From: an uncultured Acidobacteriota bacterium | Lineage (GTDB): Bacteria; Acidobacteriota; Thermoanaerobaculia; Gp7-AA8 | Assembly: GCA_963822445.1 (NCBI GenBank) | Contig: CAWGHO010000002.1 | Location: 480,001 to 544,000 of the forward strand | Reading direction: 5' to 3' | DNA length: 64,000 bases | Shown here: positions 934-51,285 of the stretch, piece after piece | Layout: every line of letters begins with the position of its first letter | Position numbering within the stretch: position 1 is the first letter of the stretch | Made by a program: the position numbers and the translations under genes | The notes under the pieces: model-generated | The model's database searches: none | What the model was told of the DNA's origin: nothing | The model's input: only the letters and a program-made list of their open reading frames with translations

Positions 934-1131
934 GGCTAACGTCTATCGCCTGAGCTGCGCGGCCAGGGCCCGCGTGCCGAAGCCGGAGCGGCGCGGCGGT
1001 TGCCGCGAGCAACGTGCGAAGCACCGCGCCGCGAACTGCAACCGCCGTGACGCCGTCACGCTGGCGAAAAAGCAGCCGGCTCGGCCGGCGGGCCGGAGCC
1101 GGGCCGCGACAGCTCCTGGCAGTAGTTAGGC
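934..1131 (-). repeat. attC-like recombination site, 198 bp (copy 1)
   Basis: GGCTAAC...GTTAGGC cores bound an imperfect palindrome (GAGCTG-CGCGGCC / GGCCGCG-A-CAGCTC). Near-identical to 13684-13881. Confidence 0.85.
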
Positions 1132-1193
1132 GCCGGTTTATCAACGTCCGATGGCATAATGCCATCGTTGACGTGGTGCGCCAAGGGAGGACG

Positions 1194-1841
1194 ATGTCCG
1201 GCAAGACCTCAGCACTTGAGATCGCAAGGCTTTCATACAAGCAAGGCATAGCGGTGGCTCTGATCAGCGCCTTTGCTGGGGTTGCGACTACCGTGATCAG
1301 CAAAGAGATTGCAGAGCGCCGGGCCGCTGATGCGCGGCCGACAGCGACCGCTGGAAGTGCGGCGAACCAGGATAGTCGCACTCCCGAGTTACAGAAAGTG
1401 GTTGACAACACCCGTACACCGCCGAGCGAGGCAGATCAACGCGAAAGCGCGACGGCGTTAGCCTCAGCAAATGAAGCGCTTAGACGCTTGAAACAGCAAT
1501 TGGACAAGGCGAGTTCATTGTCCGTTTCTCTGACCAAGGAGCGAGACGAACTGCAGGCTGAACTAGAGGCCGGTCCAGATTTCGGATGGCGGAGTCTGAC
1601 AACGGAATCGAGTGGGGAGAAATGCGTCGCCAGAGTCATTACGTCAATGAAAGCAGCTGGCGTAACAGTTGCGCACCGCGACGGTATGTACGTGCATGGT
1701 CGCAAGGGCGCAGTAGCGGTCTCGATGGAATGTCCGATAGACGAAACGGGCGAAGCTTTGCTGTTTACTGCGTGCCGCGACATCTCAAACTGTGATGAGT
1801 TGGCCGATCAGATAGAAGTAGAGTTCACATCGAGCCACTGA
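1194..1841 (+). CDS. Hypothetical protein with N-terminal TM segment, coiled coil and Cys-containing C-terminal domain (cassette gene)
   Basis: ATG at 1194 follows a GGGAGG RBS. Bounded by the exact complementary cores GTTAGGCGC (1125) and GCGCCTAAC (1854-1862). Confidence 0.75.
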   Translation: MSGKTSALEIARLSYKQGIAVALISAFAGVATTVISKEIAERRAADARPTATAGSAANQDSRTPELQKVVDNTRTPPSEADQRESATALASANEALRRLKQQLDKASSLSVSLTKERDELQAELEAGPDFGWRSLTTESSGEKCVARVITSMKAAGVTVAHRDGMYVHGRKGAVAVSMECPIDETGEALLFTACRDISNCDELADQIEVEFTSSH

Positions 1842-1855
1842 CCGTGACGTCGTGC

Positions 1856-1874
1856 GCCTAACTTACATTTCGAC
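1856..1874 (-). other. attI-like simple site heading array A
   Basis: Minus strand reads GTCGAAA-TGTAA-GTTAGGC (L-like box, 5-bp spacer, R box). No attC hairpin follows the core. Confidence 0.5.
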
Positions 1875-2309
1875 CGACTCCACGTGTCCATAATTTCTAC
1901 ATACGCGCACCCTTGCGACGCCGTGCCTTGCAAGCGCTAGCCGTTCGTAAACAGGCGCGCCTCTCGGCTTTCCGCGAGCTAGCAACTACGAGCGCGGAGC
2001 GGAGCATCCGTTCGAGAAGAAGGCGTACGGCGTCAATACCAACGCAGCGACGTTACCGTAGCTGACACCATACGGGCGAGCGCCTGCGGACGCTTGACGC
2101 GGGATCGGGACTGCAGGAAGTGGGGCCGCTGCACGGCGCGGGTGTGATCACCGGCATCGCCGAAAGCGAAATCACATTCGTCGACTTGAACACGAATGAA
2201 GTGAACTCGACCATTTGTCAGCAGCCGGGAGAGAGGCAACCTCGACCTGGAGCGCCGCCGTCCGCCGGCGGCTGTACCGCAGGCGTCCGGCGACGCACTT
2301 GCAGGTTCG

Positions 2310-2762
2310 ATGTCCATGAGAATCCTCGTCGCCGTCGATCACTCCCCGCATTCCCTTGCCGCCGTGGAGACAGTCATGGCGCGCCCCTGGCCCGAATCGA
2401 CGAAAGTCCGTCTGCTGACCGTCAACGCGCCTCCCTACGTGGCGTTTGCGCCGTGGGTGGAGCTGCAGGCAACGATGGCGGACTTCGATGCCGAGGTGAA
2501 AAAGCAGGCCGAGGAGCTCGTGAGCACGATGGCGGCGCGAGTTCGGGAGAAGGCTCTCGACGTCGAGGTCGTGATTCGAGACGGTGACCCGCGTACGGAG
2601 ATCGTCGATGAAGCGATCAAGTGGGACAGCGATCTGATCGTGATCGGCTCACACGGCTATACCGGCATCAAGCGGCTTCTTCTCGGCAGCGTCGCGCAAT
2701 ACGTAGTGGCTCACGCGCCCTGCTCGGTGGAAGTCGTGCGGCGTCCTGCAGGAAACGCGTGA
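2310..2762 (+). CDS. Universal stress protein (UspA family)
   Basis: ILVAVDHS N-terminus and GDP...DLIVIGSHG...LLGSVAQYVVAHAPCSVEVVR C-terminal signature. Confidence 0.95.
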   Translation: MSMRILVAVDHSPHSLAAVETVMARPWPESTKVRLLTVNAPPYVAFAPWVELQATMADFDAEVKKQAEELVSTMAARVREKALDVEVVIRDGDPRTEIVDEAIKWDSDLIVIGSHGYTGIKRLLLGSVAQYVVAHAPCSVEVVRRPAGNA

Positions 2763-2778
2763 GCTGCAGCCCACCCCC

Positions 2779-4525
2779 CTAAACCATTTCCTTGACCTTG
2801 TCGGCGAGCAGAGTCAGCGCGATCTCCTTGCGGTTCGGCTCCCCCTTCGCCAACGACTCCGCCAGATGCAGGGCCTGCTTGGCGGTGATCTTCGACGGCA
2901 TTGGCGGCTCGACCGGATCGACGATCGCTTCGATCACGACCGGACCCGGCATGCGCAGGGCCTCGTCGAGCATCGAGCCGCAGAGCAGCGGATCGTCGAT
3001 GGTCATCGCCGCGGCGCCGCATGCGCGCGCGAATGCGGCGAAGTCGATCGGGTGCAGCTCGCAGCCGTACTCGGGATTGCCGAGGAAGACCATCTGCTCC
3101 CACTTGATCATCCCCAGGGTGTTGTTCTTGATGACGATGACCTTGATCGGCAGGCCGTACTTGACCGCGGTCGCCAGCTCGCCCATGAGCATCGTGAAGC
3201 GCCGTCGCCGACGAACGCGACGCATTGACGATCCGGATACGCGACCTGCGCGGCGATGGCGTACGGCAACCCGTTGGCCATCGAGGCCAGCGTTCCCGAA
3301 AGCGAGAACATCTGCCCCTTGCGCGCTTTGATCTGCCGGGCGAACCAGGTCGCGATCGTTCCTGAATCGCTCGACACGATGGCGTCGTCCGCGAGCCGCT
3401 TGCCGAGCTCCCACGCCACCACCTGCGGTTTCATCGGCTTGTCGGTGCGCGTTCCGCGCGTCTCCATCAGCTCCCACCACTCGCGCATCCCCGCTTGCGC
3501 TTTCTCCAGAAACGCGCGGTCTTCCCGTTGCGCGAGCAGCGGAACGAGCTTCTCCAAAGTCCGTTTGCTGTCTCCCGCCAAACCGACTTCGATGGGATGA
3601 CGCAGTCCGATGCGCACCGGGTCGACGTCGATCTGAACCGCGCGCGCCTGGCCGGGCTTGGGCAGGAACTCGATGTACGGAAACGAGGTGCCGACCATGA
3701 GCAGCGTGTCGCATTCCTCCAACGCTTCTTGAGAAGGCCGGGTGCCGAGGAGGCCGATGCCGCCGGTGGTGTACGGACTGTCGTCGGGAACGGCGGCCTT
3801 GCCGAGCAGCGGCTTCACGATCGGTGCGGCCATGCGCGCCGCGGCCTCTTCGAGCAGATCGCCCGCGCCCAGCGCGCCGCGGCCGGCCAGGATGACCGTC
3901 TTGTTTCCCTCGTTCAGAAGATCGGCGGCGCGGCGGATATCGTCATCGCACGGAACGTGAGCGCCGAACGCGAGGACCTCCGACGTGTGATTGGGGATGT
4001 TCCGCTCCGACCCTTTTCGACCTTGATCGATTGCAGGTCGACGGGAAAGTTGATGTGGGCGACGCTGCGGCGGGAGATCGCCATCCGGCAGGCCAGCGTG
4101 GTCACGTTTTCGACGTGCGCCGGACCCATGATGCGCTGGCTGTACACGGCCACGTCGGCGAACACACGATCGAGATCGACGTCCTGCTGCGCGAACGTTC
4201 CGATGAGGTCGTGGTAGTGATGGCCGGTGATGGCCAGCACCGGCTGTCCATCGAGCTTCGCGTCGTAAAGACCGTTCAGCAGATGGAGTCCGCCTGGACC
4301 TGATGTGGCCACGCAGACACCGAGCTTGCCCGTGTACTTGGCGTACGCGCAGGCCATGAACGCCGCCGACTCTTCATGACGAACCTGGATGAATCGGATC
4401 GTGTCGGCGCGCTGGCGGAGCGATTCCATGATTCCGTTGATGCCGTCGCCGGGCAGGCCGAACACCACGTCGACGCCCCACGACTGCAGCGTGTCCACCA
4501 GAACATCGGAAGCGGTTTTGGCCAT
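2779..4525 (-). CDS. poxB: Pyruvate oxidase/dehydrogenase (PoxB-like, TPP-dependent), split by two frameshifts near 4012 and 3200
   Basis: FGLPGDGING, VRHEESAAFMA, GPGGLHLLNGLYDAKLD and the GDG...NN TPP motif are spread over three consecutive frames. Confidence 0.85.
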
Positions 4526-4534
4526 GACCGATGA

Positions 4535-5017
4535 CTACCGCGCAGGGCCGCTGAGAGAGCTCGGCGCATCGAGGTGTGCACCATCGTCGACGCCCACTGA
4601 GAGCCGGCCCACGAGCTCACCGCCGAGCCATCCGGTGATCGTGGCCAGCCCCGCGCCGAGTGCGCCGAGGAGGATGGCCAGGGTTGCGGGGTTGGCGGGA
4701 TGCTCGCGGCGCAGGAACCAGCTCGCGGCAAACAGCACGACCACGATGACGTTTCCGATGCCGTGCAGACGGCCGATGCGTTTCGCGCGCGTGCCGTCGG
4801 GGATCTTCAGATAGTCGATCAATCCGAAGACCGCGGCGATGAGGCCGGCCGCGACACCGGCCGCGATCATGTAGTACGACGCGCTGAAGAGGCCCTGATG
4901 GCGATCGAGAAACAGAGCGATCACGTCGAAGAACAGCGCCATCGCCAGAACGCCCAGGGGAAACACGATCAACATCTGATGAATGGGATGCCCGAACAGC
5001 TTTGCCCTTGCTTCCAT
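4535..5017 (-). CDS. DUF2231-type membrane protein
   Basis: GHPIHQMLIVFP...HGIGN...GWLGGELV motifs. GGAGG RBS before the ATG at 5017. Confidence 0.85.
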   Translation of the reverse strand: MEARAKLFGHPIHQMLIVFPLGVLAMALFFDVIALFLDRHQGLFSASYYMIAAGVAAGLIAAVFGLIDYLKIPDGTRAKRIGRLHGIGNVIVVVLFAASWFLRREHPANPATLAILLGALGAGLATITGWLGGELVGRLSVGVDDGAHLDAPSSLSGPAR

Positions 5018-5089
5018 GGCTCCTCCTCCGTCGCGCAGCAGCCGTGCAAGAGCGGCTCCCATTTCCCCACGCAACCGTTGGAAAACTGA

Positions 5090-5860
5090 TCAGGAAGTTT
5101 TCGGCGGCTCGCGCTCGAAACGGACCTTCTCGTTCTTCCGCGAGGCCGTTGCCGCTCGCACGTGAAACTCGCATCGACCGTCGCCGTCCTGAAACCGCCG
5201 CTCGCGCACGACCTCGCAACCGGTCAACCGCCGCAGCGTGCTGACCGTCGTGCTGCAGATGTCCGGCCGCTCCATGGCTACATTCAGATACGGACAATTC
5301 CGCTCGGTGAGCACGAAGTCGTCGCCACGCCGCTCAACCTCGGTGAACGGATCGCCGGCCATGTAGATCGCCCGAAGCTGCTCCATCTTTTTCTCGAGCG
5401 GCAGTGCAGCGAGATGGGGCTCGAGCCAGCCGACCCGCGCATCGGTCAATCGTGTCAACGCGGCGGCCAGCGACGCATCGCCTTCGACGGCAATCGTGTC
5501 GAGCAGGCCGATCGTCAGTGAGGCGTACTGCTTCGGGAAGAGGTGATCGCCTGCAGCGGTGAGGCAGTACATCGCCGGCGGTCTGCCCGGCGCCGGCTCG
5601 CCGCGTTCGGAGAGATCGGGCTCGCAGTTCGATTTGATCCATCCGCCTTTGTGCAGATCGCCAACCTGCTTGCGCGCCGCCTCATGACTCATCCCCAGCG
5701 CCTCGGCGATTCGAGGGATGGACACGAAGCCTTCGAGCTTCAGCAGACGGAGGATGTTCGCGCGCGTGACAGAAAGCTCATCGAGAACATCGCGGGACGC
5801 CACGGGTGCGAGCTGCTTCAGAAACCATGCCCTGGGAAGCAGCCCCATCCAATTTCCCAA
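5090..5860 (-). CDS. ArsR/SufR-like HTH transcriptional regulator
   Basis: N-terminal wHTH, then GRP..YCLT..G..LFP..Y and ERNCPY...IC...RC cysteines. Confidence 0.8.
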   Translation of the reverse strand: MGNWMGLLPRAWFLKQLAPVASRDVLDELSVTRANILRLLKLEGFVSIPRIAEALGMSHEAARKQVGDLHKGGWIKSNCEPDLSERGEPAPGRPPAMYCLTAAGDHLFPKQYASLTIGLLDTIAVEGDASLAAALTRLTDARVGWLEPHLAALPLEKKMEQLRAIYMAGDPFTEVERRGDDFVLTERNCPYLNVAMERPDICSTTVSTLRRLTGCEVVRERRFQDGDGRCEFHVRAATASRKNEKVRFEREPPKTS

Positions 5861-5917
5861 CTTGCCGGTTGGGAATTGTGAACGCGATTTGCACCACCGA
5901 TGTCAGGAGGTGCTGAC

Positions 5918-7269
5918 ATGGTTCGTACGGAGAGAGCGCGGGCGGGCCTCGCGCTCGGCCTCATTTTCGTGCTTTCGGCATGCGTCGGAATGCCGACGTA
6001 TGCACCACAAAATCCGGCAGTCAAGAACGAGATGCACAGCGGCCGGTATCGCGACGCCGTGGCCGACTACTCGGAGAAACTGTTCAACGAAGGACGGCAG
6101 ATCTTCCGCCACGACACGTTCGGGAGCGAGGCGTTCTGGAGCGGCAAGCTTCGCCTGCACGAGGCCATCGCCGGCGAGCGATTCGGAGGCGTGGGTCACG
6201 GCTCGAGCCGAAGGACGCGCTGAAGCTCGGTCTCAAAGTCGACACGGGCGTCCTCCCGAAAATCCTCGGCGAAGCAGTCAAGGGCGGCGGCGTCGATCTC
6301 GGCGACGTCAAGACGACCATGGAGCTGCTCAAGGCCGATGCAGTCGTCGGCGTTGCCGCGAAGTTCGACGGCGACAAGCTCGTCTCGGTCGGCATCACCT
6401 GCGCGCTCTGCCACTCGACCGTCGACGACTCGATCATGAAGGGCGCCGGCAATCGTCTCGACGGATGGCCGAATCGCGATCTCGACGTCGGCGCGATCGT
6501 GGCCTTAGCCCCCGACCTCAGTCCCTACCAGGATCTCCTCGGCGTCGATCGCGCGGCGGTCGAGCGCGTTCTGAAGAGCTGGGGACCGGGCAAGTACGAC
6601 GCGGAGCTGAACCAGGACGGCAAGGGCTTCCGGCCCGATGGGAAATCCGCCGCCACTGTCCTGCCGGCCGCGTTCGGACTGGCCGGTGTGCATCTGCACA
6701 CGTACACGGGCTGGGGATCAGTCACGTACTGGAACGCGTATGTCGCCACGACACAGATGCAGGGCGTGGGGACGTTCTTCGATCCGCGGATCAAGACATC
6801 AGGGAAGTTCCCCATCGGCGTGAAGGGCGGGTTCGACAACATCCGCCGCACACCCGATCGCGTGACGGAAAAGCTCGCGCCGCTGCACTACTACCAGCTG
6901 TCACTGCCGGCGCCGTCGCCAAAGAGCGACTCTTATGACAACGCGGCCGCCAAACGCGGCGAGGCGATCTTCAATGGGAAGGCGAACTGCGCTCGCTGCC
7001 ACGTACCGCCGCTGTTCACCGAACCGGGATGGGCGATGCACACACCGGAGGAGATCGGCATCGACGATTTCCAGGCGAAGCGCTCGCCGGACGGGATGTA
7101 TCGCACGACGCCGCTGCGCGGTCTGTTCGTTCGCGAAAAGGGCGGGTTCTATCACGATGGCCGCTTCCCCACGTATGGCGCGGTCGTCGATCACTACGAC
7201 GGTCACCTCAGACTCGGACTGACCGCGGCTGAGAAAAATGACCTCATCGAATTTCTGAAGTCGCTGTAA
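5918..7269 (+). CDS. Diheme c-type cytochrome (cytochrome c peroxidase-like) lipoprotein, frameshift near 6202
   Basis: LSAC lipobox, two CXXCH motifs (CALCH, CARCH), YRTTPLRG and FYHDGRF. Confidence 0.8.
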
Positions 7270-7288
7270 ACCGATAGGAGAGACTCCA

Positions 7289-7945
7289 ATGCGCAGCACA
7301 ATATCCATCCTCGTCATTTGCACGTTTTTGTTGTCCGGGTGTGCGTCGCAGCCTTACGGCACAACGTCAGATCACTCGTCAATGCACGCAGGAATGCCGG
7401 CCGATGACAGCCGCACCGCACTGTCGAAGGCAATGCGCGATCTCTGGGCGGATCACGTCATCTGGACGCGCAACTACATCATCGCGGCCGCATCGGATCA
7501 GCCGGATGCGCAGGTAGCAGCGAACCGCCTGCTCGCGAACCAGGACCAGATCGGACAGGCCATCGTTCCTTATTACGGGCAGGAGGCCGGAACGAAGCTC
7601 GCCGGTCTGCTCAGAGACCACATCCTGATCGCGGTCGATCTCGTCGCGGCCGCGAAAGCGAACGATCAGACCAAGCTCGGAGATGCCGACCGGCGCTGGA
7701 AGGCCAATGCCGCCGACATCGCGACATTCCTGAGCGGCGCGAATCCGAACTGGCCGCGTGAGGCCGTGCTCAACATGATGAACGAGCACCTCGCCTTGAC
7801 CACCCAGGAAGCAACCGCGCGGCTACAGAAGAACTGGAGCGAGGACACGGCAACGTTCGACAAGATCTTCGATCAGGCCATGATGATGGCCGACGCATTG
7901 ACGGACGGGATCATCAAGCAGTTTCCGGATCGCTTTCGCGGGTGA
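7289..7945 (+). CDS. Conserved helical lipoprotein of unknown function
   Basis: LSGC lipobox, GGAG RBS, and a His-containing helical domain (LWADHVIWTR, LLRDHI, MMNEHL). Confidence 0.8.
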   Translation: MRSTISILVICTFLLSGCASQPYGTTSDHSSMHAGMPADDSRTALSKAMRDLWADHVIWTRNYIIAAASDQPDAQVAANRLLANQDQIGQAIVPYYGQEAGTKLAGLLRDHILIAVDLVAAAKANDQTKLGDADRRWKANAADIATFLSGANPNWPREAVLNMMNEHLALTTQEATARLQKNWSEDTATFDKIFDQAMMMADALTDGIIKQFPDRFRG

Positions 7946-8011
7946 CTTACACACACGCCGGTGACATCCGACCCTTCGTCGGCATGAAGGGTCGGATAAG
8001 CTCCACCGCGC

Positions 8012-8464
8012 GTGAAGTCTCTGCTCCTCATCGGAACCGCCGTCCTCCTCGGAATCGCGGGGGGCGTCGGTTTCTTCACGTTCGGCTACGCACGCGGCGC
8101 GTCGTATCTCACCAACGATCCCGCCGCGTGCGCGAACTGCCACGTGATGCAGAGCCACTACGACGACTGGCGGCATTCGAGTCACCGCTCGGTCGCTACG
8201 TGCAATGACTGCCACACGCCGCCCGGCCTGATTCCCAAGTACGCGACGAAGGCCTCGAACGGGTTCTGGCATTCGTTCGCGTTCACGACCGGCCGCTTTC
8301 CCGAGCCGCTGCGGATCAAGCCGCACAATCGCGAGATCGCCGAGAAGGCCTGCCGCAAATGTCACGCGGCGATCGTTCAGGCGATCGATCCCGTTCCCCG
8401 GCATGACCCGGCCGATGCGACGTCCTGCATCCGCTGCCACTCCAACGTCGGACACATGAGGTAA
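8012..8464 (+). CDS. nrfH: Cytochrome c nitrite reductase small subunit
   Basis: N-terminal TM helix, four CXXCH motifs with the first as CANCHVM, immediately upstream of nrfA. Confidence 0.93.
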   Translation: MKSLLLIGTAVLLGIAGGVGFFTFGYARGASYLTNDPAACANCHVMQSHYDDWRHSSHRSVATCNDCHTPPGLIPKYATKASNGFWHSFAFTTGRFPEPLRIKPHNREIAEKACRKCHAAIVQAIDPVPRHDPADATSCIRCHSNVGHMR

Positions 8465-8468
8465 GCAA

Positions 8469-9860
8469 ATGGCCAAGGACACTCTCGATCCCGAGCGCAG
8501 CAAGCGCCGCCGCCGCTTCTGGATTCTTCTGAGCGCGATCGTCGCCGGCGTCGCGGTCATCACCGCCGGCCTGACCGCGCTGCTCGTCGACATTTTCGAG
8601 CACAAGCAGGAGGCCCGGAATCCGTTCTACCGAGTGTCCGAGCTCACCGACGAGACTGTCGATCCCGCGAAGTGGGGAGAGAACTTCCCGCTGCAATACG
8701 ACGGGTACAAGCGGACCGTCGATCAGGTGCGCACGCGCTATGGCGGCAGCGAGGCTGTTCCTCGAACGCCGACGTCGGCCGACCCGCGTTCGATGGTCGC
8801 GCAGTCGCGGCTCGAGGAGGACCCGCGGCTGAAGACGATGTGGGCAGGCTACGCGTTCTCGGTCGATTTCCGCGAGGAGCGCGGCCACGCCTACATGCTT
8901 CAGGATCAGGAGTTCACGGAGCGGCAGCATTTCGCAAAGCAACCCGGCACCTGCCTCCACTGCCACGCGTCGGTCTACGTTCCCTACAAGCGCGCCGGCG
9001 GCGGCGATCTGATCAAAGGCTTCGAGAAGCTGAATCAGATGACTTACTTCGAAGCCCGGAAGCAGGTCAGCCATCCGGTGGCCTGCATCGATTGCCATGA
9101 TCCGAAAACGATGCAGCTTCGCATCACCCGTCCGGGCTTCCTCGAGGGAATCCGCGTCGCCAAGGCCGCGGCAGGCATCGCCGATTACGACGTGAACAAG
9201 ATGGCCACGCGGCAGGAGATGCGCTCGTTCGTCTGCGGGCAATGCCACGTCGAGTACTACTTCAAAGGTCCGGAGAAACGCCTCACCTATCCCTGGTTCA
9301 AGGGCCTCAAAGCCGACGAGATCCTCAGCTATTACGAAGAAGTGAAGTTCAAGGACTGGACGCACGAGATCAGTGGAGCGCCGGTCCTGAAAGCGCAGCA
9401 CCCGGAGTTCGAGATGTGGAACCAGGGCATTCACGCGCGCTCGGGCGTGGCCTGCGCCGACTGCCACATGCCCTACGAGCGCGTAGGCGCGATGAAGATC
9501 AGCAGCCATCACGTGCGCAGCCCTGTGCTCAATCTCAACAACGCCTGCCAGACCTGCCACAAGTGGCCGGAGGAAGAGCTGAAGTCCCGCATCGAGATCA
9601 TCCAGACGCGCACGCACGAAATGCGCGGCATCGCCATGGACGCGCTGATCGCCCTGATCAAAGACATCGAACAAGCCCGGACCGCCGGCGCGACCGACGC
9701 CCAACTCGAGAAGCCGCGCAATTTCCAGCGACGCGCGCAGTTCCTCCTCGACTTCATCGAAGCGGAGAACTCGATGGGCTTCCACGCGCCGCAGGAAACG
9801 GCGCGGATTCTCTTGCAGTCAGTGGACAACTCGCGCAAAGGACAGGAGGCACTGCGGTGA
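8469..9860 (+). CDS. nrfA: Ammonia-forming cytochrome c nitrite reductase, catalytic subunit (CXXCH first-heme variant)
   Basis: Five heme motifs (CLHCH, CIDCH, CGQCH, CADCH, CQTCH) plus RGHAY, HVEYYF, KAQHPEFE and ENSMGFHAP. Confidence 0.95.
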   Translation: MAKDTLDPERSKRRRRFWILLSAIVAGVAVITAGLTALLVDIFEHKQEARNPFYRVSELTDETVDPAKWGENFPLQYDGYKRTVDQVRTRYGGSEAVPRTPTSADPRSMVAQSRLEEDPRLKTMWAGYAFSVDFREERGHAYMLQDQEFTERQHFAKQPGTCLHCHASVYVPYKRAGGGDLIKGFEKLNQMTYFEARKQVSHPVACIDCHDPKTMQLRITRPGFLEGIRVAKAAAGIADYDVNKMATRQEMRSFVCGQCHVEYYFKGPEKRLTYPWFKGLKADEILSYYEEVKFKDWTHEISGAPVLKAQHPEFEMWNQGIHARSGVACADCHMPYERVGAMKISSHHVRSPVLNLNNACQTCHKWPEEELKSRIEIIQTRTHEMRGIAMDALIALIKDIEQARTAGATDAQLEKPRNFQRRAQFLLDFIEAENSMGFHAPQETARILLQSVDNSRKGQEALR

Positions 9861-9893
9861 CACGTGGCCGGGAGTCTGCTCCGCGTGCCGGTC

Positions 9894-10150
9894 ATGAACA
9901 GCAAGCTGGAACGCTTTCATGACCTGGTGAAAGACATCGAAGTGGCCATGATGACCACTCAGCGTGGCGACGGTCTGCTGGTTTCGCGACCAATGGCCAC
10001 GCAGGTTTTCGCCGAAGGTGCCGATCTCTGGTTCGTGACGACGAAGGGCAGTCCCAAGTTATCGGAGATCGCGCAGAGCTCCGGCATCAACCTCTCCTAC
10101 TACAAAGACCGGACGCGGGAGTGGATCTCAGTTTCCGGCGACGCCCGCGA
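9894..10150 (+). pseudogene. Truncated general stress protein 26 / pyridoxamine-5'-phosphate oxidase-like protein
   Basis: AMMTT...SRPMATQ...LWFVT...WISVSGDA. Similarity stops at about 85 aa and the frame runs into a convergent gene. Confidence 0.7.
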
Positions 10151-10275
10151 ACCAGGCCCTCCAGTCGGGACGGTAGAGCTCGTGAATCTTCGCGCGATCC
10201 TCCACGACGCGGCAAGAGTCCCGAATTCCCCGACGCGCAGACCATTACGGGCGATTTCCAACGCGAACGTTGATC

Positions 10276-10824
10276 CTAAGCACCGTCTCGTGGGCGGTTC
10301 CTGCCTTTTCGCCAGGCAACCGAACCGATCGACACGAAGCATGCAAAAGAAAACAAAATCACAAAACCGGCGGCAAACCATCGAGTTGGGTCGGTAAAAA
10401 GCTTCCACAACCCAACGCCTGTGAAGAACGCAGAGATCAGCGCAAGGCACGCGACCCAGAGCCAGCCCAACGCTCTTGCCTGCGCTTCCGTCGCATCGCT
10501 CCATTTCATGTTCGATACGGCGGGTGGAAGGCCACGCACTCGCCTCCGGACGCGAAACTCGAACCAGAGGGCATACAGGAGCAGAAGCACAATCGCCGCA
10601 AACACAGCGGCCTGGATGCTTTGGCGACGGGCGACCACTAATGAAATGACGGTGAAGACAAGCACTACGACATAGGACACCTTTAGATCACGCCGCAGAT
10701 CCGACTCGAACGTCGGGTCGGGCAGAACGTAGCCTCGCCCCAAAACGCCGTACGGATAAAAGGCCGTCGAACCATCCGGTTGACGCTTGAAGGAAGGGTC
10801 GGTCAGGGCATCGAGATAGCTCAT
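10276..10824 (-). CDS. Hypothetical membrane protein
   Basis: 182-aa ORF, GGAG RBS, four hydrophobic segments. Confidence 0.7.
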   Translation of the reverse strand: MSYLDALTDPSFKRQPDGSTAFYPYGVLGRGYVLPDPTFESDLRRDLKVSYVVVLVFTVISLVVARRQSIQAAVFAAIVLLLLYALWFEFRVRRRVRGLPPAVSNMKWSDATEAQARALGWLWVACLALISAFFTGVGLWKLFTDPTRWFAAGFVILFSFACFVSIGSVAWRKGRNRPRDGA

Positions 10825-10848
10825 CCCAACTCCAGGTTCGCGCCGGCG

Positions 10849-11499
10849 TCAGGATGCTGGCTTGTTTCGGTGCCAACGGCCTGCAAACGGCAGATCCCAC
10901 AGACTTCTGAGCGGAATGTTCAGGTACGAGCACGTGTCCCGGAGGAGTGGCCAGCCAAAGCCGAACACAATCGACCAGTACACGACGTCGAATAGTAATC
11001 TCAGCACCGCTGCAATGAGGGCAGCGCTGAAGAACGACCATGAGCTCGTGTCCAGGTCGGCCAGCCGGTCCCGGAAAGCGAACAGCCCGACATTTGTGGC
11101 GATTCCGGTGACGGCCCTCACCGCAGCTGGAACGACGTTCCATAGCCGCAGCGTGAGCTCCAGCACAACGAAACGAACAATCAGAAGCAGGACCCGCTGG
11201 CCCTCCACTACCGGAGACGCCAACGTTTGCAACGTCACCTCTCCTGCGGTCGCAGCCCGAACCTCGGCATGCTTCTGCTGAATTTCGAGCTCGAGCTTCC
11301 GCGATTCCAGCGTGGTCTTTCGGAGGATGTTGAACGTAAGGATGAGCCCAAGCAGCGCCGCCGGTATCGCGAGGACACCTGTTGCCACCTTGTACCAGAC
11401 CTCTCCCGCCTTCGCGTTCGCCGCTGCCCCGTCCTGAGCGATCGCGTCACTTGCGAAGATGCAGATGACCACCGCGCACGTCAAAACCGTCCGTCGCAC
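10849..11499 (-). CDS. Hypothetical membrane protein with signal peptide
   Basis: GTG start after GGAGG, AIA-Q cleavage site, several TM segments. Confidence 0.7.
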   Translation of the reverse strand: MRRTVLTCAVVICIFASDAIAQDGAAANAKAGEVWYKVATGVLAIPAALLGLILTFNILRKTTLESRKLELEIQQKHAEVRAATAGEVTLQTLASPVVEGQRVLLLIVRFVVLELTLRLWNVVPAAVRAVTGIATNVGLFAFRDRLADLDTSSWSFFSAALIAAVLRLLFDVVYWSIVFGFGWPLLRDTCSYLNIPLRSLWDLPFAGRWHRNKPAS

Positions 11500-11583
11500 C
11501 GTGAGACCTCCATTGCTGATGTGCTCGGAATTGTACGCGGATCGGCCTGAGGGCTTCAGCGTCACGACGTAGCCAGGGTCTCG

Positions 11584-12081
11584 CTACTGAATCTTCTTGT
11601 CTTCCCGTTTGGCGTCTTCCATGGCCTCAGGCTCGAGCTCTTCCGCCGCTCGATTCAGCCTGATGAATACGCCCCAGGCCGCCAATAATGCCGCCGTTGC
11701 CAACCCGATTGAAGACGCGCTCCACAGCATCCGCGGGTCTCCTTCGAGGAAGCGCACGACGGCAACGAGATATTTGATCGACAGTGCAACCACAACCACG
11801 ACGAGGAAACGCGAAAGGTAGCGGCGTACGCGCGTCGGGGCGCTGACTTGCGAGCGACGGACGACTTCCTCCTCCATCACCGTCTGCGCAATCTCGAGAG
11901 CAACAAGGGCGATCGCAAGAATCCCGATGCTCTCGATGACCTGGGATACGTGTGTTGGCGAGTGGGCCACAGCCTCCCAAAGCGTCACGACAGCGCGGAC
12001 GACGAGCACCACGGCTGCCGCGCCGAAGAAGAAGGCGATGGCCGAGTAGATCAACGTGAACACGCGCATGATCCAGGTCAT
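11584..12081 (-). CDS. Four-TM membrane protein (PsiE-like)
   Basis: IESIG...ALEIAQTVMEEEV...RR.LSRFLVVVVVALSI pattern. Confidence 0.7.
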   Translation of the reverse strand: MTWIMRVFTLIYSAIAFFFGAAAVVLVVRAVVTLWEAVAHSPTHVSQVIESIGILAIALVALEIAQTVMEEEVVRRSQVSAPTRVRRYLSRFLVVVVVALSIKYLVAVVRFLEGDPRMLWSASSIGLATAALLAAWGVFIRLNRAAEELEPEAMEDAKREDKKIQ

Positions 12082-12099
12082 GACTCCGTTATACATCAG

Positions 12100-12304
12100 G
12101 AGTTAGAAGCCGGGCGCGTCAGCGGCGAGCGGCCCGCCCACGGGTGCTGGCGATTTGGGCGGGCCACGCTCACAAGCGATGGAATAGCACGACACAACTT
12201 CGTGTACACCGGCCCAAGTCGAAGAGTACGTGCCCCGCCCCCGAGAAGTGAATGAAGACCTCGCGCGAGCAATCGTGCGCAAGGTATGCAAGGACCGAAC
12301 ATGA
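12100..12304 (+). pseudogene. hicA: Degenerate HicA toxin
   Basis: HicA-like fragments in different frames (AHGCW; EYVPRPREVNEDLARAIVRK*). The stop overlaps the hicB ATG (ATGA). No intact start, and the left boundary is approximate. Confidence 0.55.
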
Positions 12305-12714
12305 GATTTGAGGGCAGAGTAGTGCGTGATGGCCGGTGGTGGCTGGCTGAGATTCCGCTTCTCGATGCAAGAACTCAAGGCCATACACGACGCGAGGCCT
12401 TTGAAATGATCAAGGACTGGGTGGAGACAGCGATCAATCGCCCCGAGTTTTGCGCGACCGTACACCCGCAAGGACGCAAGGAGTTTGAACTCGAAGGGTC
12501 TGATGCTGCTGCAATGATTGCGCTTCTCTTGCGTCGGCGGCGCGAGGCAAGCGGCGCATCCCTGCGAGATATGGCGACGCGACTCGGCTTGAACTCTCGC
12601 AATTCGTACGCTCGTTACGAACGTGGCGAAGCTGTGCCGACTGTTGAGAAGCTCGACGCGCTGCTCCGAGCTACCTCGCCGGGCGGGGATTTCGTTATCC
12701 GAGAGATTCGGTAA
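12301..12714 (+). CDS. hicB: HicB-family antitoxin with C-terminal XRE HTH
   Basis: WWLAEIPLLDARTQGHTRREAFEMIKD HicB fold followed by the HTH SLRDMATRLG..YARYERG..P. Confidence 0.8.
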   Translation: MRFEGRVVRDGRWWLAEIPLLDARTQGHTRREAFEMIKDWVETAINRPEFCATVHPQGRKEFELEGSDAAAMIALLLRRRREASGASLRDMATRLGLNSRNSYARYERGEAVPTVEKLDALLRATSPGGDFVIREIR

Positions 12715-12846
12715 GCAGCGTGTCAGCGGTACGGGCGTCTCCGTGATTCCCTTCAGGTTGGCGACACGGCAGTCACTCCGAGTAGGAAGTCCGCCGCGAG
12801 GCAATCTCGCCGATGGCTTTCGACACGCACCGCGCGATCTCGGTCT

Positions 12847-13044
12847 GCCTAACGTCTATCGCCTAAGCTGCACGGCCAGGGCCCGCGTGCCGAAGCCACA
12901 GCGGCGCACCGGTTGCCGCGAATGACGTTCGAAGAACCGAGTCGCGATATGCAACCGGCGTGACGCCGCCCCGCTGGCGATGCTGTACGCGGCTCGGCCG
13001 CCGGACCGGGGCCGGGCCGTGCCAGCTTCTGGCAGTAGTTGGGC
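12847..13044 (-). repeat. attC-like recombination site, 198 bp (copy 2, divergent)
   Basis: GCCTAAC...GTTGGGC. Same length as copies 1 and 3, with compensatory stem changes. Confidence 0.85.
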
Positions 13045-13049
13045 AGCGG

Positions 13050-13280
13050 TTACTTAACTGCGAGTTCGTGCAGCAACTGCTCGATGTTTTCTGGTACGGA
13101 GACGGGCACGAACCACGAACGAGGGTACAGATAATCTTCCCCCGATTCGTCGATTACGCGCACATAGTTTCGCTGGGCAGCACTGGAATCTTCGAGTACT
13201 TCGTAGACCTTGCGCAGGTGAAGCGTGCCAGCGTATTCGCCGTTCTGAATGCAGATTGCGAAGTGCGTCGTTTGACTCAT
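13050..13280 (-). CDS. Small conserved protein, putative antitoxin/immunity (cassette gene)
   Basis: 76 aa with RVIDESGEDYLYP. ATGA-coupled to the upstream gene, stop 5 bp before the attC core. Confidence 0.8.
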   Translation of the reverse strand: MSQTTHFAICIQNGEYAGTLHLRKVYEVLEDSSAAQRNYVRVIDESGEDYLYPRSWFVPVSVPENIEQLLHELAVK

Positions 13281-13531
13281 CGGACTTGATCGAAAAAGCG
13301 CTTGATCTTCACCCATCGCTTACCGATGCCGTCGGCTTCGTACCAGTGGATCTCAGCTTCGTGCATCGTACCATCCTCGAGCCGAACGATTGCGAGGCCT
13401 TTCAGCTTTCGCCAGTCACCGAGACCGAAGTGTTCTTCCAGATACACCAAGTCGCGGATTCCCTCGCCGCTGGCGATCGTTTCGGCTCGGCGAATCGGCC
13501 CAACGATTTCGAACGACTCCCACACATCCAC
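13277..13531 (-). CDS. Small conserved protein, putative toxin (cassette gene)
   Basis: 84 aa with WRKLKG and AEIHWYEADGIG motifs. Confidence 0.8.
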   Translation of the reverse strand: MDVWESFEIVGPIRRAETIASGEGIRDLVYLEEHFGLGDWRKLKGLAIVRLEDGTMHEAEIHWYEADGIGKRWVKIKRFFDQVR

Positions 13532-13683
13532 GAAGCCAAGGCTAGCACACGCCTCATGACGTGAGTTGATAAGCGCCGCTCACGGAGACATTATGCGTCC
13601 CATGCATCGATGAGTCGCAGTCTAGATCTTCTTGCTGGCACGGGGAAAAGCTGGCCTCCAGCCGTTACACGAGGCTTACGTCT

Positions 13684-13881
13684 GCCCAACGTCTATCGCC
13701 TGAGCTGCGCGGCCAGGGCCCGCGTGCCGAAGCCGGAGCGGCGTGGCGGTTGCCGCGAGCAACGTGCAAAGCACCGCGCCGCGAACTGCAACCGCCGTGA
13801 CGCCGTCAAGCTGGCGAAAAAGCAGCCGGCTCGGCCGGCGGACCGAAGCCGGGCCGCGACAGCTCCTGGCAGTAGTTAGCC
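13684..13881 (-). repeat. attC-like recombination site, 198 bp (copy 3)
   Basis: GCCCAAC...GTTAGCC. The TAA stop of the preceding minus-strand gene lies inside the core. Confidence 0.88.
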
Positions 13882-14775
13882 GGCACGGAGCCGTACGCGA
13901 ACGAGAATGTTGCGTTCCACGCGCTGATGCGCAAGCCACGCGAATATTTGCTGAACCGGTGAACGAGGCGCAGGTGAGCGAAGATATACCCTTAGTCGAT
14001 AGACGCCAGGAGCAAGACTATTGGTATCGAACCAAGTTACGTAAGTTCCCGCTTCTTCAGTGTGAAATTTCGCAGGAGCGGATCTCCATGTCGATCGGGG
14101 CGCTACTTGAATGAACTGCGCGCTGAGATGATCGTGGTTTGTGATTCTGCCCGACAAATGCGCACGCACTTCAAGGGAGTCTGGGCCGCTGACCATCGTG
14201 GCAGAAGGCGTAACGTCAAACTTGTACAGAGAATGCACGTAAGTGTGGCCAACGGCCGTCATGGCGACAAAGATCATGACGCTTCGTTGCCATCCAAAGT
14301 AGTTCGTCGGGTCAAAGTGCGCCGAGATCTGCCAGAGCTGGTTCGGAAGAAAGCGTCGAAAAAGTATGAGCAGTACGACAGCCGCGACCGTGCCGGTGAT
14401 GCCGCCGCCGATATTTCCCATCCTGGGGATGAGGTACAGCACAGATGTAACGCCAACCAGAAAGGGAGCAGTCCACAGCAGGAGCCATCTGACCAGGAAC
14501 CAAAGTGCCAGATCTTGCATGAACATGGCGAATCCGGGCCAAAACCCCTCGTCGATGCCACTGGCGGTCGAAACCAGGCGGCCCGTCGCCGCCAACGCGA
14601 GGGCCAAGGCTATCGTTGAAAGGAAGATGACAAGTACAGATAGCACGTGCGCGGTAAAGACGAGTTCGGAACCCGGACTCACGATGCGCGTCAACGCCGC
14701 ACCGGCCGCAAAGGCAAGTGCCGCCACGGTGCCGGAGAGTGAGGCCAGCGTTCCTGCCTCGAGTTGTCGGTTCAT
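13876..14775 (-). CDS. Hypothetical multi-TM protein with C-terminal beta-rich domain (cassette gene)
   Basis: 299 aa. Bounded by the exact complementary cores GTTAGCCGG (13875) and CCGGCTAAC (14816-14824). Confidence 0.75.
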   Translation of the reverse strand: MNRQLEAGTLASLSGTVAALAFAAGAALTRIVSPGSELVFTAHVLSVLVIFLSTIALALALAATGRLVSTASGIDEGFWPGFAMFMQDLALWFLVRWLLLWTAPFLVGVTSVLYLIPRMGNIGGGITGTVAAVVLLILFRRFLPNQLWQISAHFDPTNYFGWQRSVMIFVAMTAVGHTYVHSLYKFDVTPSATMVSGPDSLEVRAHLSGRITNHDHLSAQFIQVAPRSTWRSAPAKFHTEEAGTYVTWFDTNSLAPGVYRLRVYLRSPAPRSPVQQIFAWLAHQRVERNILVRVRLRAG

Positions 14776-14817
14776 GTCCCGAGCATAACAAGAGACCGCC
14801 CGATCACGTGGGTGTCC

Positions 14818-14836
14818 GGCTAACTAATATTTACAC
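14818..14836 (-). other. attI-like simple site heading array B
   Basis: Minus strand reads GTGTAAA-TATTA-GTTAGCC, the same geometry as 1856-1874. Confidence 0.5.
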
Positions 14837-14887
14837 TTCTCCCCCTCTTTTCACCTGAATCCCACCCCCTCCCGCCATTGCGCCGCC

Positions 14888-22455: not shown

Positions 22456-22542
22456 GCCCGGGTGGCGGAATTGGTAGACGCGCAGGTCTCAGAAGCCTGT
22501 CCTCATTAGAGGGTGCTGGTTCGATTCCAGTCCCGGGCACCA
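22456..22542 (+). tRNA. tRNA-Leu(CAG)
   Basis: GCCCGGG/CCCGGGC acceptor stem, GGTAGAC D loop, CAGGT-CTCAGAA-GCCTG anticodon arm, long variable arm, GGTTCGATTCC, 3' ACCA. Confidence 0.96.
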
Positions 22543-48984: not shown

Positions 48985-51285
48985 CTACTCCACCGCCTCC
49001 GACGCCATGAAAATCCACACCGCGCCAGTACCGTCGTCATCCTCGAAACCACCGATGGCCGCGGTATTGCCGTCAGCGGAGATAGCCAGTGACTTCCCTT
49101 GGTTCGCGTTCCCGACAGAACCCGCACCGAGCAGTTTAGGTCCCCGTTGATGCCACACGCCATCGCGCTTCCTCCAAACCCATGCGCCACCGGCACCACT
49201 ATTGTCGCTGATTCCTCCAACCAAGGCCGTCATCCCGTCAGCCGACAAACACACAGAGAAACCCTGTCCAGGATTACCAATGAAGCCCGACCCGACGAGC
49301 TTCGGTCGATAAGGACTCCATACCCCTCCCTTGCTTCTCGTCCAGATCCAAGCGGCACCGATGAAATTGTTGTCTTTGCGACCGCCTACGAGTGCCGTAT
49401 TGCCGTCGGCCGAGAGCGAGACGGAGACCCCTTGAAAAGCGGGTCCCATGGCGTCTGTCCCGATGAGCTTCGTTCCTTGGTGAGACCACCTCCCGTCCTG
49501 TCTGATTAACGGCCAGACGGCACCATTGGTGTCATCGTCGGCATGGCCGCCGACGAGAGCCGTTTTGCCGTCAGCCGAAAGCGCTACTGAATATCCGTAA
49601 TCGGCCTGGCCGAACGCGCCTAGAGGAACTAGCTTCGGTCCATCCTGTGTCCAGACGTCGCCGCTTCTCGTCCAGATCCAAACGGCACCGATCTGATCGT
49701 TGTCCAGCCACCCACCCACGATGGCGGTATTGCCGTCCGCGGACAGTGCGACAGCCGCCCCTTGGTAGCTTTGGCCAACGAACCCCGAACCGACCAGTTT
49801 CGGTCCTTGCTGCCTCCATGCCCCGCCCTTCCTCGTCCAAATCCATACAGCTCCGACCCGGCTCCCATCACTGGAACCACCCACAATGGCCGTGTCACCG
49901 TCAGCGGAAAGCGCCACCGCGGTGCCTTGAACACTTCCCTCGCCTCCCGAACCCACCAGCTTCGGTCCATCCTGGGTCCACACGTCACCCTCTCTCGTCC
50001 AGACCCAAGCCGCGCCAGTACCACCGTTGTCGCCCCAACCCCCAACGATGAGGGTATTGCCGGCCGCCGAGAGCGCCACCGATGAGCCCTGAAGAGCGTA
50101 CCCTACGGCCCCGGTGCCAATGAGCTTTGGGCCTTTCTGCGAAAACAGTGCAGCGCCCGGCGTCGACGCACCTAACGTCTTCGGATCTCTGAGAGCGGCG
50201 CTACCTTCGCGAGCGAACGGATCCGTTGGCTGTTCGTCCCGCGAGCCTTTCAGCAGCCATCCGCCACCGAAGGCTAATGCAAGGAAGACGATTGCGATAC
50301 TTGCTAGCGCGAGCGACCGTCGAGTCGCCGAAATTTTCCGCACAAGCGGAGACGTCGAGGTCATCTCTGAGCCGGTTTTCCGAAGCGGTGGTGCGACACC
50401 GTGGCTGCTCCTGATTTTGACTGTCGCCGCGTCGTTAGGGACCGCCGGAAGCGCCGGACTTGTGGTTTCGCGTGTGGACGCGGGCTGAAATTCCCTAAGG
50501 TCACGGGCAATATCAGCAGCATCATCGTAGCGATCGGTCGGCCTTTTTTGTAAGCAGCGGGCGACAATCTCGCCTATTCGGCCAGGAATGCGCTCCGTGG
50601 ACTCGAGGTGGATCGCGCGCATGGTGTTCACATCTGTCGCACGACGAAACGGATGCTTGCCCGTGAACGCTTCATACAGGACGACGCCAAACGAAAAGAT
50701 ATCCGTGCGATAGTCGAGCCGGCGCAGACCATCGGTTTGTTCGGGCGAAAAATAGTCAACCGTTCCGACAATCGTGCCGCTCGTCGTGACGGTTGAGCCG
50801 GCACTTTTCGCCAAGCCGAAGTCGACGATGCGGGCCCGATTGTCGGTGCCGATCATGATGTTCGCTGGCTTCAGATCGCGATGCACCACACCGGCTTGGT
50901 GCACTGCGGCCAGTCCATCGGCGACCTCGCACAGCCAGCGCAGAATTTGGTCCTTACCTGACCGCCGCGTGCGTTCTCGCAGTGAATCTCCTTCGATGAA
51001 CTCCATGACGAGATACGGAACGTCACGGCCGCCGTGGTCCTCGATTGCGAATTCGAAGATACCCACGATATTGGGGTGTGAGAGCCCTGCTAACGTGCGC
51101 GCTTCACGCGTGAACCGCTCGCGGTCGTGGGGGCCGGAGCCCAGAAGCAACTTGATCGCTACATCGCGTTGGAGCATGGGGTCTTTGGCTCGATACACCT
51201 CGCCTTGGCCGCCAGCCGGCAAGACGTCGGCGATCTCGAAGCGACCGAATCGCTGGCCGATACTGAGAGTAGGAGTCGCGTTCAC
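48985..51285 (-). CDS. Hanks-type Ser/Thr kinase with TM helix and C-terminal beta-propeller repeats
   Basis: VAIK, HRDLKPAN, DFG, then a TM segment and about six to seven GPKL.G...QG.SVALSADG.TA.VGG repeats. Confidence 0.92.
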   Translation of the reverse strand: MNATPTLSIGQRFGRFEIADVLPAGGQGEVYRAKDPMLQRDVAIKLLLGSGPHDRERFTREARTLAGLSHPNIVGIFEFAIEDHGGRDVPYLVMEFIEGDSLRERTRRSGKDQILRWLCEVADGLAAVHQAGVVHRDLKPANIMIGTDNRARIVDFGLAKSAGSTVTTSGTIVGTVDYFSPEQTDGLRRLDYRTDIFSFGVVLYEAFTGKHPFRRATDVNTMRAIHLESTERIPGRIGEIVARCLQKRPTDRYDDAADIARDLREFQPASTRETTSPALPAVPNDAATVKIRSSHGVAPPLRKTGSEMTSTSPLVRKISATRRSLALASIAIVFLALAFGGGWLLKGSRDEQPTDPFAREGSAALRDPKTLGASTPGAALFSQKGPKLIGTGAVGYALQGSSVALSAAGNTLIVGGWGDNGGTGAAWVWTREGDVWTQDGPKLVGSGGEGSVQGTAVALSADGDTAIVGGSSDGSRVGAVWIWTRKGGAWRQQGPKLVGSGFVGQSYQGAAVALSADGNTAIVGGWLDNDQIGAVWIWTRSGDVWTQDGPKLVPLGAFGQADYGYSVALSADGKTALVGGHADDDTNGAVWPLIRQDGRWSHQGTKLIGTDAMGPAFQGVSVSLSADGNTALVGGRKDNNFIGAAWIWTRSKGGVWSPYRPKLVGSGFIGNPGQGFSVCLSADGMTALVGGISDNSGAGGAWVWRKRDGVWHQRGPKLLGAGSVGNANQGKSLAISADGNTAAIGGFEDDDGTGAVWIFMASEAVE

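Follow-up and report, generated by a model that had tools for sequence, protein, structure and literature searches.

Three 198-bp repeats in an Acidobacteriota genome as probable attC sites of a genus-specific sedentary chromosomal integron

A 64,000-nucleotide stretch from an uncultured Acidobacteriota bacterium (hereafter the window; G000:C2:480001-544000, in a genome of 6.0 Mb, 64% G+C and three contigs) contains three 198-bp repeats bounded by cores that resemble those of integron attC sites, and raises the question of what such repeats represent at a locus with no integrase gene at hand. A preliminary description of the window read them as attC sites of a lineage-specific system of two cassette mini-arrays served by an integrase in trans. 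Here, we used a computational approach to place the repeats in the context of their genome and of related genomes, and conclude that they are very probably attC sites of a genus-specific sedentary chromosomal integron, of which the window holds satellites. In essence, the preliminary reading is borne out, and each condition that it named as refuting was decided in its favour. The arrangement is not a new system and belongs to the known kind that combines a sedentary integron with attC site clusters devoid of an integron integrase (CALINs). The kind of system is well known; the unusual part is the length of its sites, about 50% above the quoted maximum.

Identity of the repeats

Delimited by the outermost bases of their cores, with the 7-mer that ends in AAC and the 7-mer that begins with GTT both included in full, the repeats lie at 934-1131 (copy 1), 12847-13044 (copy 2) and 13684-13881 (copy 3), all on the minus strand, with the plus strand of the window as the bottom (recombined) strand, on which the 5' R' core ends in AAC and the 3' R'' core begins with GTT. 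A repeat search of the window returned them as direct copies at 929-1132, 12842-13045 and 13679-13882, with copy 3 being 96% identical to copy 1 and the divergent copy 2 being 82% identical. The top-strand crossover of copy 1 is G(940)|TT(939-938), and the R' crossovers of copies 2 and 3 are G(12853)|TT and G(13690)|TT. Delimiting the cores in this way returned the same bounds, and the exact length of 198 bp, that the preliminary description had proposed. Several of its other observations also held up: all three cassette-specific pairs of complementary ends are present (the partner of the 3' end of copy 1 is at 1854-1862, that of copy 3 at 14816-14824, and the 3' end of copy 2 finds its complement in the 5' end of copy 3); the stop codon said to lie within a core is the TAA of the minus-strand open reading frame (ORF) 13876-14775, inside CCGGCTAAC, the R'' core of copy 3; and the compensatory changes of copy 2 can be seen both in its sequence and in an alignment of 90 sites (column pair 25-202, AU:33, GC:32, CG:25; column pair 33-195, GC:59, AU:30). 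The set of three was itself correct and left out a decayed fourth copy on the minus strand at the left edge of the window (positions 1-74 plus the 40 bases before, C2:479961-480074), whose 3' two-thirds fall within the window. This copy has an internal deletion of ∼90 nt, appears as two nhmmer matches (profile positions 4-49 and 141-206) and carries an R' core in which AAC has mutated to AAG.

The family extends far beyond the window. A profile hidden Markov model built from 30 copies and run over the whole genome with nhmmer gave 123 matches at 16 loci, 101 of them near full length, with truncated copies scattered across all three contigs. The bulk of the family (93 matches, 87 near full length) forms a main array of 106 kb at C2:2120558-2226600, where the sites have gene-sized spacing with one to two ORFs per interval, and 86 of the 87 share one orientation, pointing away from the integron integrase gene (intI) and its attI site. 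This array begins 1.5 kb past intI and directly downstream of it. The gene, at C2:2118092-2119057 on the same contig as the window and 1.62 Mb from it, encodes the only integron integrase of the genome: the protein (IntI) scores 456 bits against TIGR02249, with a cut-off of 265 bits that the other tyrosine recombinases of the genome miss by far, and its residues 15-319 can be aligned end to end with Vibrio cholerae IntI4 (VchIntIA, 2a3v; E 2e-93), the alignment being interrupted only once, by a one-residue gap outside the IntI-specific segment. It is transcribed towards attI and the 87-site array, with the main attI crossover, which is the start of the first cassette, at C2:2119405, 348 bp after the intI stop. 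Taken genome-wide, the features by which a sedentary chromosomal integron is recognized are all present: an intI with the specific segment, an attI next to it, and similar attC sites in a long array. The integrase with the additional segment that the preliminary description expected has hence been located. Its statement that there is no integrase holds locally, as tblastn finds no intI remnant in C2:470001-500000 even at E 10, but does not hold for the genome; what was missed is the integrase and the large array elsewhere.

What ties these sites to integrons is the way in which their cores vary from one cassette to the next. The outer R' bases of an integron attC site derive from the next cassette and so match that cassette's own R''. 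All 90 aligned sites have AAC and GTT unchanged, and many have G or C at the second position of the core, making the cores RYYYAAC-like rather than exact. When the six bases outside AAC/GTT were compared across the main array, 79 of 84 adjacent pairs were complementary at all six positions across the cassette. The same was true of the two ends of a single site in 19 of 87 cases, of pairings with the wrong neighbour in 10 of 84 and of random pairs in 670 of 5000 (13%). The complementary core reaches 9 bp. Within the window, the same rule applies to copy 2 with copy 3 and to both first cassettes, and the cassette-specific complementary cores first described there are thus found in the other genomic copies as well. 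Since this cross-cassette pattern is expected neither from a transposon nor from a repetitive extragenic palindromic (REP) element, both are disfavoured. Sites are 181-201 bp long, with a mode of 197-199 bp among the 99 measured and two-thirds of them (66/99) at 196-201 bp, and the family exceeds the described attC range of 57-141 bp.

Folded structure and recombined strand

The integrase-binding module of these long sites is canonical, and their extra length lies entirely in a conserved terminal stem. Each hairpin starts with an R box of 7-9 bp that includes AAC/GTT, continues through an unpaired spacer to a 3-bp L stem and then, in 89-90 of the 90 aligned sites, through a 1x2 internal loop, a 6-bp stem and a one-base bulge. 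All the extra bases are on the R'' arm, opposite 5'-AAC, separated by the 6-bp stem, and beyond them extends the terminal stem, which is partly branched and comprises ∼130-150 nt. Folding of single strands, a check that the preliminary description had suggested, showed that individual copies are more stable than shuffled sequence (z-scores of -3.0 to -4.4). Comparison among sites provides the stronger evidence. Across the 90 sites, RNAalifold predicts 27 pairs, 17 of them with compensatory changes. A 42-pair structure is paired in 93.6% of cells, compared to 84.6% in column shuffles (reached by 0 of 500) and to 29-48% when the partners are slid by 1-3 columns; in the same structure, 23 pairs change on both sides, compared to 15.1 in shuffles (0 of 500). 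R-box pairs are often broken within one site, and column pair 10-219 is paired in only 50 of 90 sites, as chimeric cores would lead one to expect.

Four lines of evidence agree on which strand is recombined. The sites of the main array are oriented opposite to the window copies, and that array runs away from intI and attI. Out of 137 main-array ORFs of at least 110 aa, 35 have a Pfam match at E≤1e-5, four of which are transposases, and 23 of the 31 non-transposase ORFs are on the strand that leads away from intI. Stability favours the bottom strand in 80 of 99 sites, with a mean difference of 2.4 kcal/mol (DNA parameters). Finally, the position of the extra bases follows the bottom-strand rule set out by Nivina et al. 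(2016, PMC5027507), by which extrahelical bases lie opposite 5'-AAC, the first and the last one a 6-bp stem apart. Based on this agreement between array polarity, ORF strand bias, extra-base positions and strand stability, the plus strand of the window is the recombined bottom strand and the cassettes read on the minus strand, the reverse of the direction first assumed.

Several observations weigh against this account and need to be set beside it. In the cassette signature, (i) five of the 84 adjacent pairs are incompletely complementary, several of them beside insertion sequence (IS) insertions. In the structure, (ii) the unpaired spacer is lopsided, the AAC (R') arm having ∼6-7 nt of it and the R'' arm 3-4 nt, where Nivina et al. 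(2016, PMC5027507) give 5-6 nt per arm; (iii) the extra bases, C/T and a variable base, depart from the usual G and T; and (iv) one of five covariation measures, the count of further pair types, is reached by 131 of 500 shuffles. As for the strand, (v) the top strand folds better in 18 of 99 sites, and the 99 sites are related and no independent sample, so that the Wilcoxon p for strand stability overstates the case; (vi) eight of the 31 Pfam-positive main-array ORFs other than transposases are on the opposite strand; and (vii) both credible ORFs of the first window array (390-845 and 1194-1841) are reversed relative to the cassette direction.

Two explanations that do without an integron were considered. 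The repeats could be a non-autonomous transposable element or a REP-like palindrome that resembles attC and has nothing to do with IntI, as might be thought of a long GC-rich palindrome that occurs at 16 loci, with truncated copies on all three contigs and single-copy folding z-scores of only -3.0 to -4.4. Such elements, however, would not lead one to expect that 87 of 101 near-full-length copies sit in one co-oriented array beside IntI, at gene-sized intervals of one to two ORFs and with AAC/GTT unchanged throughout; moreover, the repeats have no direct target duplications, and their flanks are inverted complements common to each cassette. Miniature inverted-repeat transposable elements (MITEs) and IS ends were rejected on the same lack of target-site duplications, with the IS481 and IS1595 transposases being insertions into cassettes or sites rather than partners of the repeats. 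We regard this as the least probable of all the explanations. It is also highly improbable that the repeats are structured RNA genes, terminators or insulators duplicated together with neighbouring genes. Their intergenic position and a conserved structure with covariation would suit such a role, but no repeat has an Rfam match, whether at gathering thresholds or with E relaxed to 1, the stem is not followed by a T-run, both strands support the structure, and an RNA role leaves the cassette-wise chimeric cores unexplained. Even so, the hairpins may affect transcription in a secondary way. Overall, no fitting Rfam family, IS end or MITE signature was found for the repeats, any of which would have spoken against attC sites.

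The satellite arrays and their origin

By the presence of at least two nearby attC sites without intI nearby, the window holds two CALIN-type satellite arrays, both on the minus strand. Array 1 runs from an attI-like flank (1886-1863) and G 1862 through cassette A, copy 1 and cassette B to the decayed attC, its last recognizable site, and has one intact and one decayed site. Array 2 runs from its flank (14848-14825) and G 14824 through cassette X, copy 3 and cassette Y to copy 2, its last intact site; the two intact sites are 837 bp apart. The two separate mini-arrays ∼11 kb apart of the preliminary description can thus both be delimited, and the 11 kb between them carry ordinary genes (Usp, a thiamine pyrophosphate [TPP] enzyme, DUF2231, cytochrome c552 nitrite reductase and a PNPOx-like protein).

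None of the four cassette bodies, which are on the minus strand, recurs in the genome. Cassette A (1132-1862), the first of array 1, starts with TT (1861-1860) after G 1862 and contains a plus-strand ORF of 215 aa (1194-1841) with GGGAGG upstream; in cassette B (75-933), a good Shine-Dalgarno sequence precedes just one ORF, the plus-strand 390-845 (151 aa). Cassette X (13882-14824), the first of array 2, has the forward-oriented ORF 13876-14775 (minus strand, 299 aa), for whose product one homologue was found (55% identity, 301 aa), and cassette Y (13045-13683) has two small overlapping forward ORFs on the minus strand, 13277-13531 (84 aa) and 13050-13316 (88 aa), and DNA relatives of 74-78% identity placed elsewhere in other genomes of the genus. 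None of these five ORFs has a credible family in Pfam or NCBIfam, as is usual for integron cassettes. To the left of copy 2, we found no partner core for a third cassette and, in 9800-12900, no attC-like inverted repeat. The DNA past copy 2 holds cassette-like genes without recognizable sites, including an HTH_31 gene (12286-12714) that sits between attC matches in another genome of the genus.

Like the main attI, both arrays open with G|TT right after a flank that is not attC, and these flanks resemble that of attI. The half-site of array 1 (1863-1886, minus strand), which abuts the first cassette, shares 11 of its first 13 positions and 14 of 24 with the flank of the main attI, and the corresponding flank of array 2 (14825-14848, minus strand) shares 8 of 13 and 15 of 24. 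Over 24 nt, only attI and the two window flanks reach the score of either array among the 1579 YTAAC sites of the genome, with the flank of array 2 giving the best value apart from attI; over 13 nt, the flank of array 1 is second only to attI. A 16-nt motif, GGTCGAAATNNAAGTT, occurs exactly twice in the genome, at the main attI and at array 1, and is absent from 30 other genomes of the genus (28 without the unpublished G002 and G041). The likeness to attI is confined to ∼15-24 nt next to the crossover. From ∼60 bp beyond the junction, six genomes of the genus retain the right flank of array 2, and upstream of that point they have no sequence in common, either among themselves or with this locus; in the surroundings of array 1, conservation in relatives is restricted to the TPP-enzyme gene.

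How the satellites arose can be read in two ways, and we consider it about equally probable that they were seeded by insertion of cassettes by IntI at attI-like sites of the genome or that they are rearranged pieces of an integron. In its fullest form, the second reading makes the window arrays relics that stem from the main integron or from a second platform that once existed, and that were displaced or stranded through IS activity, inversion between oppositely oriented attC sites or loss of intI, rather than new insertions; we hold this to be a real possibility, if one that falls short of probable. The attI motif that is private to this genome (two occurrences here, none in 30 others) fits copying better than independent targets and means that the likeness of the flanks could be inherited instead of selected by the enzyme. 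Array 1 finishes in a decayed site, both arrays pass into cassette-like DNA without attC, with the HTH_31 gene lying between attC sites elsewhere, and the main array contains IS481- and IS1595-family transposases and one inverted attC. Links of CALINs to IS and to genomes with IntI elsewhere have been reported as well (Cury et al. 2016, PMC4889954). Seeding is further opposed by the fact that no empty site was found in relatives. In contrast, a relic would not be expected to lose its likeness to the platform within ∼15-24 nt of the crossover, and there is neither a duplicated cassette body in the genome nor an intI remnant around the arrays (tblastn, C2:470001-500000, E up to 10); in addition, the three junctions share a loose consensus and not one copied block.

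Whichever way they arose, the satellites could be mobilized by the route known for integrons. The bottom strand, that is, the plus strand of the window, would fold as single-stranded DNA into a long imperfect hairpin, in which IntI would cut between A and C of the AAC; the enzyme would excise cassettes as circles by attC x attC recombination and insert them at attI, and, from 1.62 Mb away, would serve the window satellites in trans. An integrase in trans is what the preliminary description had supposed, and a single IntI with its main array does co-occur with the window sites in one genome; it may act on them today. A more ambitious reading, which we consider unlikely, combines two proposals: a multi-platform integron, in which one IntI serves attI and at least two orphan attI-like landing pads (1863-1886 and 14825-14848), each with its own captured cassettes, and a terminal stem of ∼130-150 nt that is a functional module tuning cassette mobility in the genus. 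As such a module, the stem may, for example, be a brake on cruciform extrusion or a binding site for host factors.

Cassette content, distribution and known systems

The main array carries many genes of defence type, with seven TIR-domain ORFs (one of the CAP12/Pycsar type), two Mrr-type nucleases, two AAA_21/AbiEii-like ATPases, Abi_C, DndB, two PIN and two FRG domains. One cassette body of ∼290 bp is present in twelve copies within C2:2155131-2223089 (65-69% G+C, 89% mean column identity), has neither a convincing ORF nor an Rfam match, and is followed each time by its own attC subtype of 189-190 bp with a CTCAC/GTGAG L stem; it may be a non-coding cassette, or one for a very small protein, that was amplified within the array. 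Three IS481-family and one IS1595-family transposase genes (L093:10354-11286, L093:18943-19875, L094:8430-9362 and L093:14376-15365) also lie in the main array, and at C2:2204392 and C2:2221468 the GTTAG core of an attC site is adjoined by an IS end. The single inverted attC (C2:2205449; L093:12449-12647) adjoins the IS1595-type transposase region and may mark a local inversion.

A few features of the window lie outside the cassettes. The TPP-enzyme gene beside array 1 (2779-4525, minus strand) is acetolactate-synthase-like and is split, by frameshifts or sequencing errors, over three overlapping ORFs that carry the N-terminal, middle and C-terminal TPP domains. About 250 bp to the right of array 1 (2013-2260) are 81-83% identical to C2:478443-478700 (L095:443-700), the 3' part of a gene 1.3 kb to the left of the array; array 1 and its neighbourhood are therefore bracketed by a direct repeat of a gene fragment. 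Further away, four copies of a 125-nt direct repeat (49298-50079; 60-76% identity, 162-330 bp apart) probably belong to a repeat-domain gene, and a tRNA gene (22456-22539) is the only Rfam match above the gathering score in the window.

The long sites are a trait of the genus in the sample searched. Copy 1, used as a BLAST query, was matched in 22 of the 24 other genomes of the genus (21 of 23 if the unpublished G002 is left out) and had only two weak matches (E ∼1e-4) in 16 genomes of the same order or class, so that the lineage specificity claimed in the preliminary description is true at the level of the genus. In public genomes, the closest IntI proteins share 50-71% identity with that of this genome, with the top value (71%) belonging to a Thermoanaerobaculia metagenome-assembled genome. 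In a search of sequencing runs for the locus, no RNA run was listed, and the best DNA set contained only 0.14 of the sampled words, in metagenome contigs from soil, rhizosphere and sediment. At the loci inspected outside the genus, the attC sites beside IntI relatives are ∼58-130 nt long, and the attC profile had no match in 80 loci around IntI relatives of other genomes, which indicates that this sequence family is not common to them.

These sites extend the working size range of attC to ∼200 bp with an integrase-binding module that is still canonical, and they bear on how the length of the terminal stem affects folding and recombination. They also matter for the detection of attC sites: the default upper attC limit of IntegronFinder is 200 nt, and the family lies at or above it. 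The size option exists, with --max-attc-size 300 being the setting used in one paper. Beyond the sites themselves, the genome offers a clean natural case for studying whether CALINs originate at attI-like sites, for trans action over megabase distances, and for the content of a soil-type integron of 87 cassettes, with its TIR-domain, Mrr-type nuclease, AbiEii-like and PIN genes.

In the literature that we searched on attC length, attC structure and integrons of Acidobacteria, we found no paper on an attC family of ∼200 bp, which is no proof of absence. A close precedent is the taxon-specific covariance model for attC sites of Acidobacteria in the supplement of Ghaly et al. (2021, PMC8352920), built from 120 sites, whose header lists a consensus length of 106 and a maximal expected hit length W of 247. 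The main text of that paper gives no site length for Acidobacteria, and a W of 247 implies that long sites may already be contained in published data sets. Regarding the layout of the integron, the genome resembles Treponema-type integrons in having intI, attI and most cassette genes on one strand, the integrase of Treponema being likewise transcribed towards attI according to Wu et al. (2013, PMC3607928), and differs from them in its host lineage and in attC sites far longer than the 63-132 bp given there.

The window arrays are like the CALINs defined in Cury et al. (2016, PMC4889954) and like CALINs and single attC sites with no integron integrase (SALINs) in general (Neron et al. 2022): arrays of about two cassettes without intI nearby, with IntI elsewhere in the genome. 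Insertion at genomic (attG) sites with a G|TT crossover, a published origin of such arrays, was shown experimentally in the preprint of Loot et al. (10.1101/2022.09.11.507474), whose attG sites have little in common beyond GWT and differ from attI. Unlike them, the entry junctions of the window resemble the resident attI over 13-24 nt.

At the level of the individual site, Nivina et al. (2016, PMC5027507) put the length of attC at 57-141 bp and point out that the terminal structures of chromosomal integrons are often longer and branched, and Cury et al. (2016, PMC4889954) set the variable terminal structure at 20-100 nt. The sites described here agree with those of sedentary chromosomal integrons, such as the V. 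cholerae repeats (VCRs), in their inverse AAC/GTT cores and in an R' that is chimeric across cassettes. They further share with VCR-type sites the two extra bases opposite the bottom-strand AAC with a 6-bp stem between them, the homogeneity of sites within one large array, the long structured terminal region and the better folding of the bottom strand. They differ from VCR-type sites and from attC sites in the literature in their length of 181-201 bp, the lopsided spacer, extra bases that are not G and T, and a complementary core of up to 9 bp.

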